Shown here piece after piece: positions 36,089 through 42,397 of a DNA stretch of 64,000 bases. The number at the start of each line of letters is the position of its first letter. The stretch's first letter is position 1. This DNA is from an uncultured Lachnospiraceae bacterium (GTDB lineage Bacteria; Bacillota; Clostridia; Lachnospirales; Lachnospiraceae): the NCBI GenBank assembly GCA_947086895.1, contig CAMUAR010000002.1:45253-109252 (forward strand), given 5' to 3'. A program made the translations under genes and the position numbers. The notes under the pieces are model-generated. The model was not told the DNA's origin. It worked only from the letters and a program-made list of their open reading frames with translations, and did not search any database.

Positions 36089-37138
36089 TTATATTTTAGC
36101 TTTTTCCATAAAACATTCTAAATTTTTATGTTCGGAAAGATACTTATTCAGCATAATAAGCTCATCTTCCCAAATACAGTACTGCGTATCTTTTGCTCTC
36201 ACCTTGGATAAACATTCCGGCAAATCCTGCCAGAGCACAGATTCCACTTCGGAAACTTGAAGTTTTAATGCAGAAACATCCACTGGATTCGCATAGAGAT
36301 AAACCATTGCCAACTCGTTGTTTCGAAACGGTTTTCCGTAAAATTCGCTTTCAAACCACCCGCGATGCAGCCCGATTTCCAACAGTTCCTGCGGTTTTGC
36401 CAAAATTCCAAGTTCTTCAAATAATTCTCTTAAAGCAGACTCTCTGTATTCCTGCCCGGCCAGAACATGCCCGGCAGATGAAATATCATAACAGCCCGGA
36501 AACGCATCTTTCTCCACGCTTCGTTTCTGGAGCAAGACCTGCCAGACTTGCTGTTTCCTGCGCACAATCCACACATGCGCAGTGCGGTGCAGATCTCCCT
36601 CCAAATGTACCATACTGCGCTCTTTTACCATCCCTGTTGGATTGCCCTGCTTATCCAAAAGATCAAACAGTTCCATCGGCTTGCCATCCATAATTGCCTG
36701 CATTAAAACATCATCTTTGTATATAAATTTTAAAGAAAAAAATTCCTCTTTTGTGCGCAGCAAGTCAAAAAACAATCGATCGCCGCGCCAGATTGGAAGA
36801 TCATACACCTTTTCTTTCGGTATCCATGCCAGCTCTCCTTCATCGCATGGCAAAAGCTCCCCTGAAAATTTATCTGCCGTATATAAAAACATATATTCTG
36901 CATTGCATTCATCAAGCAGAAATGTAATAATTCCTCTTATTTTATATGAGGTCAAACACAGCCCACACTCCTCTTTTACCTCACGAAGCACACACTCATC
37001 CGGGCTTTCACCCACTTCCATATGCCCGCCAAGTCCAATCCATTTTCCTTTATTAATATCCTGTTCTTTTTTTATGCGATGCAGCATTAAATAACCGTTG
37101 TCTTTTTCAATATAACACAATGTTGTTAAATTTCCCAT
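36089..37138 (-). CDS. Tandem Nudix hydrolase (MutT-like N-domain plus a second Nudix domain)
   Basis: Box 1 is GGHMEVGESPDECVLREVKEECGL. Box 2 is AGHVLAGQEYRESALRELFEELGI. Start taken at ATG 37138 (AAGGTGG RBS). Confidence 0.8.
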   Translation of the reverse strand: MGNLTTLCYIEKDNGYLMLHRIKKEQDINKGKWIGLGGHMEVGESPDECVLREVKEECGLCLTSYKIRGIITFLLDECNAEYMFLYTADKFSGELLPCDEGELAWIPKEKVYDLPIWRGDRLFFDLLRTKEEFFSLKFIYKDDVLMQAIMDGKPMELFDLLDKQGNPTGMVKERSMVHLEGDLHRTAHVWIVRRKQQVWQVLLQKRSVEKDAFPGCYDISSAGHVLAGQEYRESALRELFEELGILAKPQELLEIGLHRGWFESEFYGKPFRNNELAMVYLYANPVDVSALKLQVSEVESVLWQDLPECLSKVRAKDTQYCIWEDELIMLNKYLSEHKNLECFMEKAKI

Positions 37139-37173
37139 GCGGTTTTCCACCTTGATATTTCATCTTGTTTTCT

Positions 37174-37854
37174 TTACTCTGTATGTTCTTTTTGATGCCT
37201 TCCGCACGATTTTTTTTCTGTACATTTTCCAATCACATCACACTTTGGCATAAAAAGATTGTCCACAATCCAAGCCCATTCTTCCGAATAGTGTCTTAAA
37301 ACATCACAGATATCGCCAAACAGCGCGCGATATTCCCAGTATGCCCGCGCGCACATTCTCTGACGGCTCATATCAACCAGATTGCGCAGATTCCGCTTGT
37401 CCACAATTTTTGTCGCCATGCCAAGAGGAAGAAGCATCGCGGAATCCTCGCGCGCAACACCGAGTTCCTCCAGCTTTTTCAGCGATTCCTGAATGTTTTT
37501 TATCGCCTTGGTATACTCCTCCAATGCCGCGGTATTGCCTTTCATACCATGCGGTATAATATAATCAAATCCATCCTGGTAATTGATGTACCGCGTACTC
37601 GACTGAAGCCTTGTCGGCGCGCCTCCAATATGCGTATACCATTCGCGGATCACTCTTGCACTGTAACCGTCCAACACCATCTCAACATTAACATACTCCA
37701 TTGTACGCCCATGATTTGCCACAATGCAATCCATCCCGCGCTTGCAGTTTTTTTCCTGATCTTGTATATCCCCGCCCCAGCAGACACCAGCCCTCATACC
37801 AATCAACGTAATCGGATTTTTTGTTGTTTCCGGCAAAACGATAACCTTTCCCAT
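37174..37854 (-). CDS. thyX: FAD-dependent thymidylate synthase
   Basis: ThyX-like sequence (...SARVIREWYTHIGGAPTRLQSSTRY...). Start taken at ATG 37854 (GGAGG RBS). Confidence 0.75.
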   Translation of the reverse strand: MGKVIVLPETTKNPITLIGMRAGVCWGGDIQDQEKNCKRGMDCIVANHGRTMEYVNVEMVLDGYSARVIREWYTHIGGAPTRLQSSTRYINYQDGFDYIIPHGMKGNTAALEEYTKAIKNIQESLKKLEELGVAREDSAMLLPLGMATKIVDKRNLRNLVDMSRQRMCARAYWEYRALFGDICDVLRHYSEEWAWIVDNLFMPKCDVIGKCTEKKSCGRHQKEHTE

Positions 37855-38120
37855 TCTGTCCTCCATCCTGCTGCCTTTTGTTATAATGCCTGCCAAAAAA
37901 GCAGCATGCTTATTATAAAAGGTTTTGATATATTATGTACTTTATACTCAAAATTAATAATTTAACTATACTACAAAAAAGTCAGAAATTCAAGGTTCGT
38001 TTTCCGCAAAAATCAAAGAGCAATATACAATGTGTTTTCTGCTGCTTGTCTTTGCTGACAATCCATCTCCTTGATATGTTTGTATCTTGGTACACGCTTT
38101 TTGTTTTTCGACAATGCACA

Positions 38121-38173
38121 TAAAAATACCTTCTAAACAGACTTTTGGCTTTTACCCCATCCGCTTAGAAGGT
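38121..38173 (-). terminator. Candidate terminator downstream of nrdD
   Basis: Stem ACCTTCTAA (38128..38136) pairs with TTAGAAGGT (38165..38173), followed by a T-run on the minus strand. The loop is large. Confidence 0.4.
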
Positions 38174-38205
38174 AACTGATCTATTTCTGTTGTCGTTTGA
38201 TAAAA

Positions 38206-40809
38206 TCAAACTCGTTCTACATAAGCTCTGATACTGGAAGCGTTTGCATACAACTGCGTATGTCCTTCGGATATCACGGCAAGCGTCGGCGCCTGCTGAA
38301 TATCAAGCCCTCTTGCAAGTTCTGGATTTTCCTGCGCGTCAACAACAATATAATCCATCCCTTCCAGATAACTTTTCGCCTGCCGACAGTTCGGGCAAGT
38401 CTTTGTTGTAAACAGATAAGTCCCATCTGGAAGCCCGCAATCATTCTTTAAATCCAGTTTGAATAAATCCGCTCTCTTGTTTTGATCCAGCAGACGGGAT
38501 AATTCCGACATCTCTTTTGGTTCCAACAAACTGGACAAATCCGGCATCTCAGATATCCCTTTTGATTCCAGCAGACGGGATAATTCCGACATCTCTTTTG
38601 GTTCCAGCAAACTGGACAAATCCGGCATCTCGGATATCCCTTTTGATTCCAGCAGACGGGATAGTTTCAACATCTCTTTTGATTCTGACTGTTCTGTCAT
38701 CTTTTGTTCTTTTATAGTTTCCCATGACATTTTGCGGGATTCCTCAAGATTATAAGTTTTTCGGTTTTTATATTCCTGCGTTTTTCCAGCGTTCCAGTTT
38801 TGCACCGGGCGGTAATATCCGGTAATTCTGCTGTAAACTTCCGTTTTTTCCCCGCATTCAGGGCATTGATATACTTCCCCGCTCAAATAGCCATGATTCC
38901 TGCATACCGAGTATGTCGGAGACATAGTATAATACGGAAGCTTGTAGTTTGAAGCGATCGTGCGAACCAGCTTTGCTGCTGCCTGCCAGTCCACAAGCTT
39001 CTCGCCAAGAAATGCATGAAACACCGTTCCAGACGTGTACAAAGTCTGAAGTTCATCCTGAACATCCAACGCCTCAAAAATATCCGCTGTAAAATCCACC
39101 GGAAGGTGAGAACTGTTTGTATAATACGGCGTATCGCCCTTGTTTCCCGCCGTTTTAATATCCGGCCACCGGTCTCTGTCATGCTTTGCAAGGCGGTAGC
39201 TTGTGGATTCTGCCGGGGTCGCTTCAAGGTTGTACAGATCGCCATACTGCTCCTGATAATCGCTTAGGCGTTCTCTCATATGGTTTAATACCTTAACCGA
39301 AAACCGCTGTGTCGCTGGCTCTTCCATTCCTTTTCCAAGCCACTTCGCATTCAATCCAACCTCATTCATCCCGACAATCCCGATTGTTGAAAAATGATTG
39401 TCAAACGTTCCAAGATAGCGTTTTGTATATGGGTATAATCCCTCTTTTAAAAGTTTTGTAATCACCGTGCGCTTTACTTTTAAGGAGCGCGCTGCAACAT
39501 CCATTGTATGGTCAAGCCGGTTGAAAAAATCGCTCTCGTTCGCCGCAAGGTATGCAATACGCGGCATATTGATTGTAACAACGCCTACAGAACCCGTACT
39601 TTCGCCGCTTCCAAAAAAACCGCCTGTCTTTTTGCGCAGTTCCCGCAGGTCAAGGCGCAGCCTGCAGCACATAGAGCGCACGTCGCTCGGCTTCATATCA
39701 CTGTTGATATAATTGGAAAAGTAAGGAGTTCCATACTTGGCGGTCATCTCGAAAAGAAGCCTGTTATTTTCTGTGTCAGACCAGTCAAAATCTCTTGTGA
39801 TGGAATAAGTTGGAATCGGATATTGAAAGCCGCGACCATTCGCATCGCCTTCAATCATAATTTCAATAAACGCTTTGTTTACCATATCCATCTCAGCTTT
39901 GCAATCTTTATATTGAAAATCGACCTCTCTGCCCCCGACAATACAATTCAGCTCTGCCAAATCATCAGGAACTGTCCAGTCAAGAGTAATATTGGAAAAC
40001 GGAGCCTGTGTTCCCCAGCGGCTCGGCGTATTTACACCGTAGACAAAACATTGGATGCATTGCTTTACTTCGTCATAATTCAGCTTGTCCACTTTGACAA
40101 AAGGCGCTAAGTAAGTGTCAAACGATGAAAAAGCCTGTGCGCCTGCCCACTCGTTCTGCATAATGCCAAGAAAATTTACCATCTGATTGCAGAGCGTGGA
40201 AAGATGTTTTGCCGGGGCGGATGTAATCTTTCCCGGAATGCCGCCAAGCCCTTCTTTGATCAGTTGTTTTAACGACCAGCCCGCACAGTATCCTGTCAGC
40301 ATCGACAAATCATGAATATGAATATCTGCATTTCGGTGCGCATTCGCAACCTCTTCATCATAAATTTCAGAAAGCCAGTAATTTGCTGTAACAGACCCTG
40401 AATTGTGCAGAATTAAGCCCCCAACGGAATAAGTGACGGTCGAATTCTCCTTGACCCGCCAGTCCTCCTCGCGCACGTAACTGTCAACAATCTCCTTGTA
40501 ATCGAGTATCGTAGATTTCATATTGCGGATTTTCTCACGGTTTTTGCGGCACAAAATATAAGCTTTGGCAACATCCGTATATCCCGATTGTTCCAACGTA
40601 TGTTCCACACTGTCCTGAACATCCTCCACGCTGACCGACTTGTCTTTTATCTTCCCCTGAAAATCTGCGGTTACCCGCAGCGCCAAAAGATCGATCATCT
40701 CCTCATCATAAAACTTTTTTGCTGCCTGAAATGCCTTTTTGATGGCGGCGCTGATTTTTGAAAGATGAAATTCTGCAATCTCGCCATCCCGCTTAATTAC
40801 CTGGATCAT
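38206..40809 (-). CDS. nrdD: Anaerobic ribonucleoside-triphosphate reductase (class III) fused through a repeat linker to a C-terminal thioredoxin/glutaredoxin-fold CxxC domain
   Basis: ATP-cone start MIQVIKRDGEIAEF... at ATG 40809 (GAAGGGAAGGGA RBS). Zn-ribbon CPECG. Glycyl-radical end SRITGYYRPVQNWNAGK. Then about 2.6 copies of a 27-aa repeat and the domain ...YLFTTKTCPNCRQAKSYL... Confidence 0.9.
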   Translation of the reverse strand: MIQVIKRDGEIAEFHLSKISAAIKKAFQAAKKFYDEEMIDLLALRVTADFQGKIKDKSVSVEDVQDSVEHTLEQSGYTDVAKAYILCRKNREKIRNMKSTILDYKEIVDSYVREEDWRVKENSTVTYSVGGLILHNSGSVTANYWLSEIYDEEVANAHRNADIHIHDLSMLTGYCAGWSLKQLIKEGLGGIPGKITSAPAKHLSTLCNQMVNFLGIMQNEWAGAQAFSSFDTYLAPFVKVDKLNYDEVKQCIQCFVYGVNTPSRWGTQAPFSNITLDWTVPDDLAELNCIVGGREVDFQYKDCKAEMDMVNKAFIEIMIEGDANGRGFQYPIPTYSITRDFDWSDTENNRLLFEMTAKYGTPYFSNYINSDMKPSDVRSMCCRLRLDLRELRKKTGGFFGSGESTGSVGVVTINMPRIAYLAANESDFFNRLDHTMDVAARSLKVKRTVITKLLKEGLYPYTKRYLGTFDNHFSTIGIVGMNEVGLNAKWLGKGMEEPATQRFSVKVLNHMRERLSDYQEQYGDLYNLEATPAESTSYRLAKHDRDRWPDIKTAGNKGDTPYYTNSSHLPVDFTADIFEALDVQDELQTLYTSGTVFHAFLGEKLVDWQAAAKLVRTIASNYKLPYYTMSPTYSVCRNHGYLSGEVYQCPECGEKTEVYSRITGYYRPVQNWNAGKTQEYKNRKTYNLEESRKMSWETIKEQKMTEQSESKEMLKLSRLLESKGISEMPDLSSLLEPKEMSELSRLLESKGISEMPDLSSLLEPKEMSELSRLLDQNKRADLFKLDLKNDCGLPDGTYLFTTKTCPNCRQAKSYLEGMDYIVVDAQENPELARGLDIQQAPTLAVISEGHTQLYANASSIRAYVERV
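38480..38686 (-). repeat. 81-bp (27-aa) tandem repeat, about 2.6 copies, inside the nrdD 3' region
   Basis: CAGACGGGAT recurs at 38491, 38572 and 38653, a period of 81 bp. Units are nearly identical and encode LSRLLESKGISEMPDLSSLLEPKEMSE. Confidence 0.9.
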
Positions 40810-40938
40810 AGCATCCCTTCCCTTCTTTTCCTTACACGGCGCTATAGCGCGGTATTCTGCGCCTACAGCACTCCCCCTATCTTTTGCACTAACACCATTT
40901 TTATGGCAGGGTAGTGCGGTCGATATCCGTGCAACAAG

Positions 40939-40967
40939 ATTGTAGCAGATAATGCAAGTCCAGTCAA
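40939..40967 (-). promoter_or_regulatory. nrdD promoter (TTGACT - 17 nt - TACAAT)
   Basis: On the minus strand, TTGACT is at 40967..40962 and TACAAT at 40944..40939. The leader is about 130 nt. Confidence 0.55.
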
Positions 40968-40975
40968 GAAAAACT

Positions 40976-41020
40976 ACAACATATATTTGTTGTTTCAGAA
41001 TCGTATACAATATATTGTGT
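40976..41020 (-). promoter_or_regulatory. Two NrdR-box-like palindromes upstream of the nrdD promoter
   Basis: ACAACATATATTTGTTGT (40976..40993) and ATACAATATATTGTGT (41005..41020) resemble the NrdR box consensus acaCwAtATaTwGtgt. Confidence 0.55.
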
Positions 41021-41152
41021 TTTTTAGTCGGATTTTCATACATTCAAAATGAGTACACAACAAAATAAAAACGTAAATATTTTATAAATATATCACTTGT
41101 ATAATAATCCTTTCCAATCCGTGTATTACAACAATTTTATCTAATCAAAAAT

Positions 41153-42397
41153 TTATATTGAATAAAAAATTTCCTTTGGCACATAAGCTTTTATATGGAT
41201 TCCATCCTCCTGGTAATCCTCACAAATCAGCTGTCCAAATTTGTGTATCTTCTGGATTTTTCCGGCTTCCTGATAACCAATCACCTTTTCCACCAGGACA
41301 CGGCGGCTTGCAAGCTGTTCACGAATTGCCGAAAACAGACCTTCCAGCCCCTCCCCTGTCTTTGCCGACAGCTTAACAGACTGGTCGGCCTTTAAATCTT
41401 TGATTGTTCGTCCAGCTTCCGGCAAATCTTGCTTATTAAACACTGTAATCACCGGCTTATCCTTAATCCCTAACTGATACAATGTCTCGTAAACCACATG
41501 CATCTGTGTTTCCGCCTCATCATTTGCAGCGTCCACCACATGCAAGATCACATCCGAGTATTTTGCCTCCTCCAAAGTTGAGCGGAATGCGTCAACTAGA
41601 TGATGCGGCAGTTTGCGGATAAAACCGACCGTATCCGTAAGCAAAATCTCCTCCCCATTTTCAAGTTTTAAGTTTCTTGTCGTTGGATCCAGAGTCGCAA
41701 ACAGCTTGTCCTCAGACAAAACTTTGGCGTTGGTCAGACAGTTGAGCAGCGTTGATTTCCCCGCGTTGGTGTAACCCACAATCGCAAAAATCGGAATGGG
41801 ACTGCCAGAGCGCAGAGAGCGCGCCACTTCACGGTTTTTTTTCACCTCGGCAAGCTCTTTGTTCAGCTGAGAAATGCGCGTGCGAATCACTCTTCGATCT
41901 ACCTCAAGTTTTTTCTCGCCCGGTCCTCTCGTGCCAATTCCGCCGCCAAGTCTTGACAAATCGCTGTGCATTCCAACAAGTCTTGTCTGACGATATTTTA
42001 ACTGTGCTAACTCCACCTGTATTTTTCCTTCTTTTGTGACTGCATGCTGCGCAAAAATATCAAGAATCAGCATCGTTCGATCCATCACTTTGCAATCCAG
42101 ATAATTTTCCAGATTCTTCATCTGTGCCGGAGAAAGCTCGTCATCACAGATAATGCCAGTCGCTTTGGTCTCTCGAATTTGCTCTGCAACTTCCTCCATT
42201 TTCCCTTTTCCAATATACGTGCCTGGATGCGCGCTCTCGCGGTTTTGAATCACAATGCCGACGGTTACTGCTCCAGCTGTTTTTACAAGCTCCTGCAGTT
42301 CTCTGATCGACTCTTTGGTATCATCGTCCTCCGACACCTGCACGCCAACCAATAAAACCCGTTCTTCATCTTTTTTAATTTCATATAATTCCGGCAT
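41153..42397 (-). CDS. hflX: GTPase HflX
   Basis: G1 GYTNAGKST, G3 DTVGF, G4 NKQD, and an HflX-type N-terminal domain. Confidence 0.9.
   Translation of the reverse strand: MPELYEIKKDEERVLLVGVQVSEDDDTKESIRELQELVKTAGAVTVGIVIQNRESAHPGTYIGKGKMEEVAEQIRETKATGIICDDELSPAQMKNLENYLDCKVMDRTMLILDIFAQHAVTKEGKIQVELAQLKYRQTRLVGMHSDLSRLGGGIGTRGPGEKKLEVDRRVIRTRISQLNKELAEVKKNREVARSLRSGSPIPIFAIVGYTNAGKSTLLNCLTNAKVLSEDKLFATLDPTTRNLKLENGEEILLTDTVGFIRKLPHHLVDAFRSTLEEAKYSDVILHVVDAANDEAETQMHVVYETLYQLGIKDKPVITVFNKQDLPEAGRTIKDLKADQSVKLSAKTGEGLEGLFSAIREQLASRRVLVEKVIGYQEAGKIQKIHKFGQLICEDYQEDGIHIKAYVPKEIFYSI

Follow-up and report, generated by a model that had tools for sequence, protein, structure and literature searches.

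The locus described here raises the question of what a redoxin domain does when it is built into a class III ribonucleotide reductase (RNR). The window analyzed, by which we mean the whole stretch of 64,000 nucleotides from contig CAMUAR010000002.1 of an uncultured Lachnospiraceae bacterium (assembly GCA_947086895.1), carries on its minus strand, between 38206 and 40809, a single unbroken open reading frame (ORF) of 867 aa that comprises an ATP-cone, the body of the reductase NrdD, a linker and a thioredoxin-fold domain with the motif CPNC. A first-pass annotation, made from the sequence alone, had proposed that a class III RNR is here covalently fused to a CxxC thioredoxin-fold domain, and the domain matches, the predicted fold and the Foldseek comparisons bear this out. 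The C-terminal domain might serve as a tethered disulfide reductant of a thiol-dependent NrdD, acting in cis, or in trans within the dimer, and recharged by a TrxB-like reductase, a reading to which we give a probability of about two in three.

One reading frame for reductase and redoxin

The catalytic part of the protein was assigned to class III (NrdD) on a barrel scoring above the model cut-offs, an RxxGY motif that follows a Cys-rich zinc (Zn) site, and the presence of an activase in the genome. The Pfam model NRDD (PF13597) covers residues 121-686 with 639 bits against a cut-off of 26.2, the NCBIfam model TIGR02487 scores 519 bits (cut-off 326), and the NCBIfam equivalog model NF006126 matches residues 1-688 with 1135 bits (cut-off 548). 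As the NF006126 match stops at residue 688, a typical family member ends where the extension of the 867-aa protein starts. This extension, already recognized at first pass, runs for about 200 residues after the glycyl-radical motif RITGYY and consists of a repeat linker and the redoxin domain. No hidden stop or sequencing error, either of which would have undone the proposal, was found between the body and the domain; the frame is continuous, and among 301 genomes of the family, each from a different genus, at least 149 have such a fused frame, so it is not an assembly error. The fusion is real. A ribosome-binding site (GGAAGGGA) lies 6 nt 5′ of the ATG at 40809. A longer frame of 945 aa, extending up to 41043, was rejected as a read-through of the leader because the homologues begin at the same MIQVIKRDG.

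The active-site residues, as shown in Table 1, were scored against characterised enzymes, above all against Thermotoga maritima NrdD (PDB 4COI, 4U3E), the best structurally characterised double-Cys NrdD. Overall similarity to that enzyme is low (E 2e-40), and its Cys125, SCCR and Glu495 align with Cys175, MCCR and Glu529 here; it differs from the fused protein in lacking a redoxin domain and the Met of the motif, and the aligned region contains no ATP-cone match. Residue 495 of the T. maritima enzyme is named in PMC9669993, and a Glu is the proposed proton donor of thiol-dependent NrdD. The active-site motifs are identical at every position in all 20 fused relatives fetched and likewise in 12 unfused relatives, suggesting that the fusion adds a redoxin to an unchanged catalytic core.

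Scoring these residues gave a two-sided answer: the Cys pair, the extra finger-loop Cys and Glu529 are all present, but the Met of the formate type is retained as well. The NrdD2 of Wei et al. is marked by a third active-site Cys and a Glu and is the thiol-dependent type (as summarised in PMC4493059); with the xCCR finger loop (MCCR) and Glu529, the fused NrdD has the NrdD2 pattern as far as its active-site residues tell, with the formate-type Met also kept. NrdD1, which has a single-Cys MGCR and no Glu, was rejected on MCCR and Glu529, and NrdD3, which has QCCR/A and neither Met nor Glu, was rejected on the presence of both Met380 and Glu529. According to Burnim et al. 2022, enzymes with MCCR and Glu belong to the 83% majority that "could use either reductant" (PMC9669993). 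Met380 therefore places the protein in this class, and outside the "thioredoxin-only" double-Cys subclade of the same authors, which has the Glu and no Met.

The C-terminal domain was identified from a marginal Pfam match and a confident structural model. Glutaredoxin (Grx; PF00462) matches residues 799-835 with 24.1 bits within the whole protein and 28.1 bits for the isolated domain, against a threshold of 22.9. AlphaFold2, run on a 93-residue C-terminal query (residues 775-867; adding 774 converts the query numbering) with a 72-sequence alignment, returned a model with a predicted local distance difference test (pLDDT) score of ~95 over query residues 21-93 and the order beta-alpha-beta-alpha-beta-beta-alpha (E22-27, H32-40, E47-50, H55-60, E68-73, E76-81, H83-92, in query numbering). 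The model places CPNC at the junction of strand 1 and helix 1, and APTL at the start of strand 3. The top Foldseek matches in the PDB were all thioredoxins or thioredoxin-fold proteins, each with a probability of 1.00, so the thioredoxin fold on which the first-pass annotation had staked its claim is indeed predicted. The nearest solved relatives of the domain profile are the Pyrococcus "glutaredoxin-like" protein disulfide oxidoreductases 1J08 and 1A8L and the short thioredoxin 1FO5 of M. jannaschii.

Two more specific identities of the domain were tried and rejected. Classical glutathione-dependent glutaredoxins are recognised by a CPYC-type site, by TVP in the cis-Pro loop and by GG-x-DD for the binding of glutathione; the domain has a CPNC site, a Q-A-P-T-L loop as in thioredoxins and no GGxDD after strand 4. 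It is not NrdH either, since no NrdH model matches and the motifs C(V/M)QC and WSGFRP are absent; PDB chains of NrdH match the domain profile weakly, with E-values of 5e-5 to 1e-4. The sole redoxin match in NCBIfam is TIGR02196 (YruB family), with 18-21 bits against a cut-off of 88.55.

Substantial variation was observed in the linker, which ranges from 28 to 109 aa in length among 20 fused relatives and is longer still in homologue P0003. The copy number of its repeat differs among near-identical homologues, with P0003 (98% identical) having about two extra 27-aa units and P0004 (93%) fewer, and the length of the tether changes between strains. Conservation of CPNC and the cis-Pro next to a linker that is free in length and sequence favours a catalytic module on a passive tether.

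Table 1. Features of the fused nrdD locus, in window positions.
Feature	Position	Strand	Basis or remark
nrdD-redoxin fusion ORF, 867 aa	38206..40809	(-)	ATG at 40809, stop at 38206-38208
ATP-cone, residues 2-92	40534..40806	(-)	Pfam PF03477, 77 bits
NrdD catalytic body including glycyl-radical domain, residues 121-686	38752..40449	(-)	PF13597, NF006126; aligned to PDB 4COI/4U3E, 8P23
beta-A Cys175, bottom-face Cys	40285..40287	(-)	aligned to T. maritima Cys125; GYCAGW invariant in 20 fused relatives
Finger-loop motif M380-C381-C382-R383, double-Cys type	39661..39672	(-)	aligned to T. maritima S328-C-C-R331; invariant in relatives
Glu529	39223..39225	(-)	aligned to T. maritima Glu495; NLEATPAE invariant in relatives
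Zn-ribbon ligands C636-x2-H639 ... C649-x2-C652	38854..38904	(-)	aligned to T. maritima C-terminal domain and to P. copri NrdD
Glycyl-radical motif RITGYY, residues 661-666, Gly664	38812..38829	(-)	aligned to T. maritima and P. copri NrdD
Leu/Glu/Ser/Lys-rich linker, 109 aa, residues 689-797	38419..38745	(-)	low confidence in AlphaFold model, three short helices
81-bp tandem repeat, 2.6 copies, 94% matches, coding for 27-aa linker units	38480..38685	(.)	repeat search
Short thioredoxin-fold domain, 70 aa, residues 798-867	38209..38418	(-)	Pfam Glutaredoxin, AlphaFold2, Foldseek, profile matches
Redox motif C805-P-N-C808	38386..38397	(-)	(nearly) invariant across 72 homologues and 20 fused relatives
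A840-P841-T-L, cis-proline loop	38281..38292	(-)	A and P invariant in 72-sequence alignment; start of strand 3 in model
Promoter-like TTGACT-17-TACAAT upstream of nrdD	40939..40967	(-)	10/12 matches, TG extension
Two NrdR-box-like AT-rich palindromes adjoining promoter	40976..41020	(.)	pattern match at 41005-41020

Distribution of the fusion and its activase

The domain was found inside NrdD-length frames in 148 of the 300 other genera of the family, or roughly every second Lachnospiraceae genus sampled. Of 400 Clostridia genomes surveyed, about 69, belonging to at least 25 families, have it too; so wide a retention argues for selection rather than accident. A scan with the pattern FTTKTCPN gave at least 594 confirmed species, and the matches listed include the fused genera Hungatella, Enterocloster, Lacrimispora, Herbinix, Anaerocolumna, Acetatifactor and Eisenbergiella as well as [Clostridium] symbiosum ATCC 14940; Lachnoclostridium phytofermentans is another fused example. 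The representatives of 50% clusters were mostly short, with the match at the C-terminal end, and were left out of the counts as probable gene fragments.

A search with the core only, across 401 Clostridia genomes, revealed a sharply bimodal picture: cores at least 73% identical to that of the window (73-85% across families) lie in frames of 784-868 aa, which are fused, and cores 48-56% identical lie in frames of 692-745 aa, which are unfused. In the tree of cores (MAFFT and FastTree, with no support values printed and thus indicative only), the fused proteins and three unfused members form one clade, sister to the unfused group. The gene nrdG2 directly follows nrdD in 12 of 12 loci of the unfused sister group, and lies upstream of it in the three unfused proteins within the close clade (L148-L150). 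On the simplest reading, a lineage whose nrdG2 lay upstream, or had moved there, acquired the redoxin, and linkage was later lost in many Lachnospiraceae; the domain was possibly lost in a few.

Several related frames were met in the course of this survey. One of the 15 unfused loci (L138:6856-7098, genome G405) has a free-standing gene for a 76-aa glutaredoxin/NrdH-like protein with a CHYC motif directly upstream of unfused nrdD-nrdG2, and this gene is a split counterpart of the fusion. The complete genome G608 harbors, 16 kb from its full fused nrdD, a 409-aa frame (C1:531081-532277) in which the C-terminal half of an NrdD core (74% identical) is followed by the redoxin domain, either a partial duplicate or a remnant. 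Six Clostridia genomes (G331, G398, G480, G533, G558 and G610) contain thioredoxin-like frames of 76-93 aa that match the domain profile only when one in-frame TGA is read through, making them candidate selenocysteine redoxins.

The first-pass annotation had also remarked that no nrdG lies beside nrdD, that no radical-SAM protein with CxxxCxxC is found in the window, and that the 3′ flank is without a real ORF. All of this stands: the next gene is thyX, the interval 37897-38205 holds only spurious ORFs of at most 62 aa, neither NrdG nor NrdG2 models match within the window's range of the contig, and a scan covering window ORFs of at least 120 aa returned only two CxxxCxxC strings, both in antisense junk frames. 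The missing neighbour is, nevertheless, no anomaly, as the genome has an NrdG2-type activase gene on a different contig and the unlinked state is usual in the family. The search for nrdG across the genome assembly (138 contigs, 96% complete) yielded two genes, an NrdG2 on contig C4 and a TIGR02491 NrdG on contig C36. The NrdG2 candidate (C4:42469-43041) scores 189.7 bits with TIGR02495 against a cut-off of 131.15, carries the motif CNFRCPFC and is 40-52% identical to activases encoded beside fused nrdD in relatives.

The genome therefore has two class III systems, the fused NrdD of the window with the orphan NrdG2, and the NrdD with NrdG on C36; class I and class II RNRs were not found at this level of completeness. 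The second system (C36:25531-30312, locus L013 of this genome, G000) consists of a 710-aa NrdD with the single-Cys MGCR, directly followed by the 178-aa NrdG. This NrdG was rejected as the activase of the fused enzyme, as it directly follows the MGCR NrdD and it is NrdG2 that tracks fused NrdD across genomes. Of the 301 family genomes, 149 have the fused domain and 151 have NrdG2; both are present in 141, the fusion only in eight, NrdG2 only in ten and neither in 142; since related genomes are not independent samples, the co-occurrence is a pattern and not a formal test. We thus regard the C4 NrdG2, with good confidence, as the cognate activase.

Among the 141 genomes with both genes, nrdG2 lies within ~4 kb of the fused gene in 22, usually directly upstream, and otherwise on another contig or far away. 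The order nrdG2-nrdD was seen in nine fetched loci (L037-L044 and L046), and hflX-nrdD with no activase nearby, as in the window, in ten others (L027-L036). An unlinked nrdG2 is the normal, majority state for the fused clade in this family. The leader of the C4 gene (L014:7060-7190) contains two direct copies of a ~30-nt element (…AATCAGAATGCTGTTTGTA…) just upstream of the likely NrdG2 start MIIHGINK, and the gene itself is located 35-170 nt downstream of one for a 784-aa protein with a C-terminal MafB19/dCMP-type deaminase domain.

Proposed role of the tethered domain

The gene encodes an anaerobic, oxygen-sensitive ribonucleoside-triphosphate reductase of the glycyl-radical type. From the architecture, motifs, predicted fold, distribution, NrdG2 co-occurrence and gene orders observed above, we infer every electron-transfer step of the following scheme. 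Reduction of the nucleoside triphosphate would oxidise Cys175 on strand beta-A and either Cys381 or Cys382 in the finger loop to a disulfide, with Glu529 as the putative proton donor, as proposed for the thioredoxin-dependent enzyme of Neisseria bacilliformis. The CPNC dithiol, carried on the flexible tether just after the glycyl-radical domain (28 to ~150 aa; 109 aa here), would then re-reduce this disulfide, in its own subunit or in the dimer partner. The oxidised domain might be recharged by a soluble flavoprotein disulfide reductase. By analogy with the nearest solved relatives of the domain, one of the thioredoxin-reductase type is the likely electron donor, and the candidate is a TrxB-like protein with a CAVC motif encoded at C5:36002-36889 (330.8 bits, just below the equivalog cut-off); glutathione would not be expected to serve. 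The NrdG2-type radical-SAM activase from C4 would install the glycyl radical on Gly664, and expression would probably be under NrdR. The earlier description of the enzyme as self-contained for reducing equivalents is too strong, since the domain would be only the last carrier of the chain and a tethered redoxin still needs an upstream reductase.

The case for a tethered reductant is built on the thiol-type residues, the thioredoxin fold, a conserved CPNC on a variable tether and the wide retention of the fusion, to which the split CHYC redoxin, the TrxB-like reductase in the genome and the precedents of Grx::NrdB and of an NrdD2 served by free thioredoxin can be added. Several points weigh against it. 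Met380 of the formate-type motif is retained, so that formate chemistry is possible (PMC9669993), and the genome encodes pyruvate formate-lyase (PFL) and so makes formate. The unfused sisters and the three unfused clade members have identical motifs, suggesting that the domain is dispensable for the chemistry. In the full-length AlphaFold model (pLDDT 71.9) both finger loop (379-403) and linker are of low confidence, and nothing about docking can be read from it; how a redoxin gets to the buried NrdD disulfide is a question that the characterised enzyme shares. In the literature searched, a biochemical study of any fused NrdD was not found.

The strongest competitor starts from the same Met. 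Turnover might depend on formate, through a thiosulfuranyl route via Met380 and Cys175, and the redoxin might be an accessory that repairs adventitious disulfides, for example at finger-loop or Zn-site Cys after transient oxygen exposure, or a redox gate, in either case supplying no turnover electrons. The conserved Met of the MGCR/MCCR motif, the classing of MCCR and Glu enzymes by Burnim et al. as able to use either reductant (PMC9669993), the presence of PFL and the three unfused members within the clade all speak for it, as does, weakly, the name "ribonucleoside-triphosphate reductase (formate)" on one fused homologue. However, formate chemistry is already provided for in this genome by the separate single-Cys MGCR NrdD1, which comes with an NrdG of its own. 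Moreover, it is with thiol-dependent turnover that Glu529 and the additional finger-loop Cys are associated, and the long retention of a CxxC domain on a free tether, in 25 families or more, is more in keeping with a stoichiometric partner than with a domain needed only now and then for repair. We consider formate-dependent turnover unlikely, though it deserves more weight than the other alternatives.

A role in activation has far less in its favour. The redoxin would here pass electrons to NrdG2 or its reductant, or recruit either, and so offset the lost linkage of nrdD and nrdG; the fusion is indeed confined to the lineage in which nrdG2 no longer follows nrdD, and the domain comes directly after the glycyl-radical domain. 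Radical-SAM clusters, however, require one-electron donors of low potential, for instance flavodoxin or ferredoxin, rather than a dithiol, nrdG2 is still directly upstream of many fused genes (the 22 of 141 above), and such a role is without precedent, all of which makes it very improbable. An artefact of assembly, frameshift or missed stop, or a decaying remnant, is excluded by the continuous frame, by an architecture common to the 149 or more family genomes and at least 594 species, complete genomes of cultured strains among them, and by the retention of CPNC and APTL across the fused relatives (n=20).

Described relatives, locus context and meaning

The novelty that had been claimed for the fusion largely falls away. 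Rozman Grinberg et al. 2018 (J Biol Chem, PMC6187632, text and Table S1) listed a grx::nrdD fusion of subclass NrdDd in Lachnospiraceae bacterium TWA4 (WP_082039398.1), and hundreds of public genomes encode proteins built in this way. Judged from its table entry, the TWA4 protein almost certainly belongs to the same protein family: it comes from the same bacterial family and combines NrdD and Pfam Glutaredoxin in one polypeptide, just as the ORF of the window joins NrdD to a Grx domain that passes the Pfam gathering score. That paper lists a single RefSeq protein, without the domain order, active-site typing, distribution, activase or an assay. No other mention of an NrdD-redoxin fusion was found in the literature searched, though Wei et al. 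2014 or the RNRdb website could mention fused forms, and it is not taken up in the searched reviews and surveys on the reductants of class III enzymes and on RNR extensions. The locus of the window is thus an ordinary representative of a large, uncharacterised clade of fused enzymes, which has been noticed on one occasion.

Annotation has helped to hide this clade. The 120 closest database homologues, all 750-984 aa long, are named plain "ribonucleoside triphosphate reductase", and a precomputed redoxin Pfam match exists for about one quarter of them; the domain is mostly unannotated because its Pfam score is near the threshold. This amounts to a systematic gap in which pipelines call the fused proteins NrdD and mostly miss the redoxin. 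The "(formate)" name cited above is an automated Joint Genome Institute (JGI) label on homologue P0183.

Comparison with characterised systems sets the fused enzyme between several precedents. N. bacilliformis NrdD, an NrdD2, is a class III RNR that depends on thioredoxin (Wei et al. 2014, cited through PMC9669993 and PMC4493059). It shares the beta-A Cys, the extra finger-loop Cys and the active-site Glu, and its disulfide is re-reduced by a thioredoxin-fold protein, the role that by analogy the tethered domain would have; however, it uses a free thioredoxin and has SCCR with no Met, whereas the redoxin is tethered and the motif is MCCR here. In class I, the fused Grx domain of the Facklamia ignava Grx::ATP-cone::NrdB was shown to reduce the RNR (PMC6187632), so that the physiological reductant is there supplied in cis, as a redoxin domain of the RNR component itself, as it may be here. 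The F. ignava fusion is N-terminal and on the radical-generating subunit, in contrast to the C-terminal fusion on the catalytic subunit of a class III enzyme; its domain is of the GrxC type, with a glutathione-dependent CxxC whose electrons pass via the C-terminal Cys pair of NrdA, whereas the present protein has a short thioredoxin-like CPNC module and no C-terminal shuttle Cys pair.

The known class III reductants include thioredoxin, for NrdD2, and the glutaredoxin-like NrdH redoxin, for NrdD3 (PMC9176816). As in the NrdD3 system, a dedicated small Grx-like redoxin is genetically linked to a double-Cys NrdD, but NrdD3 has QCCR, no Glu and a separate redoxin gene, unlike the Glu529 and the fused redoxin found here. 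The NrdD3 redoxin system was reportedly demonstrated by Wei and colleagues in 2015 for Methanosarcina barkeri, together with ferredoxin:disulfide reductase.

Around the fused gene, hflX precedes nrdD, and thyX (240 aa) and a gene for a two-domain NUDIX protein (353 aa) follow it on the same strand (window 36089-37896). The order hflX-nrdD-thyX-NUDIX is kept in a genome of the same genus (L027), and more distant Lachnospiraceae keep hflX-nrdD only. The NrdR-box-like palindromes next to the promoter-like element, and an nrdR gene in the genome (C5:85309-85746, 191.8 bits), suggest that nrdD expression is probably under NrdR control. No Rfam family was found in 37800-41200, and no intrinsic terminator was predicted on the minus strand between nrdD and thyX.

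The interest of the window's own locus is moderate; the clade as a whole is a good experimental system for class III re-reduction. Two questions about this class are at stake, namely which reductant serves the abundant enzymes with MCCR and Glu, and how thioredoxin gains access to a disulfide under the glycyl-radical domain, a question that arises because NrdD is without a C-terminal shuttle Cys. A covalently tethered clade, which includes the cultivable L. phytofermentans, C. symbiosum and Hungatella, offers a handle on both. We hold it at even odds that, throughout a large and overlooked clade of class III RNRs from gut and rumen Clostridia, turnover depends on the tethered CPNC domain as its obligatory reductant, which would act directly on the active-site disulfide, without a C-terminal Cys shuttle. 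If so, the fusion would be a natural "Rosetta stone", indicating that class III enzymes of the majority type, with MCCR and Glu, are thiol- rather than formate-dependent, and it would provide a trapped stoichiometric complex from which to learn how a redoxin reaches the buried NrdD active site. Since no RNRs besides the two of class III were found in this genome, the choice of reductant bears on how DNA synthesis is coupled to redox state in gut anaerobes.

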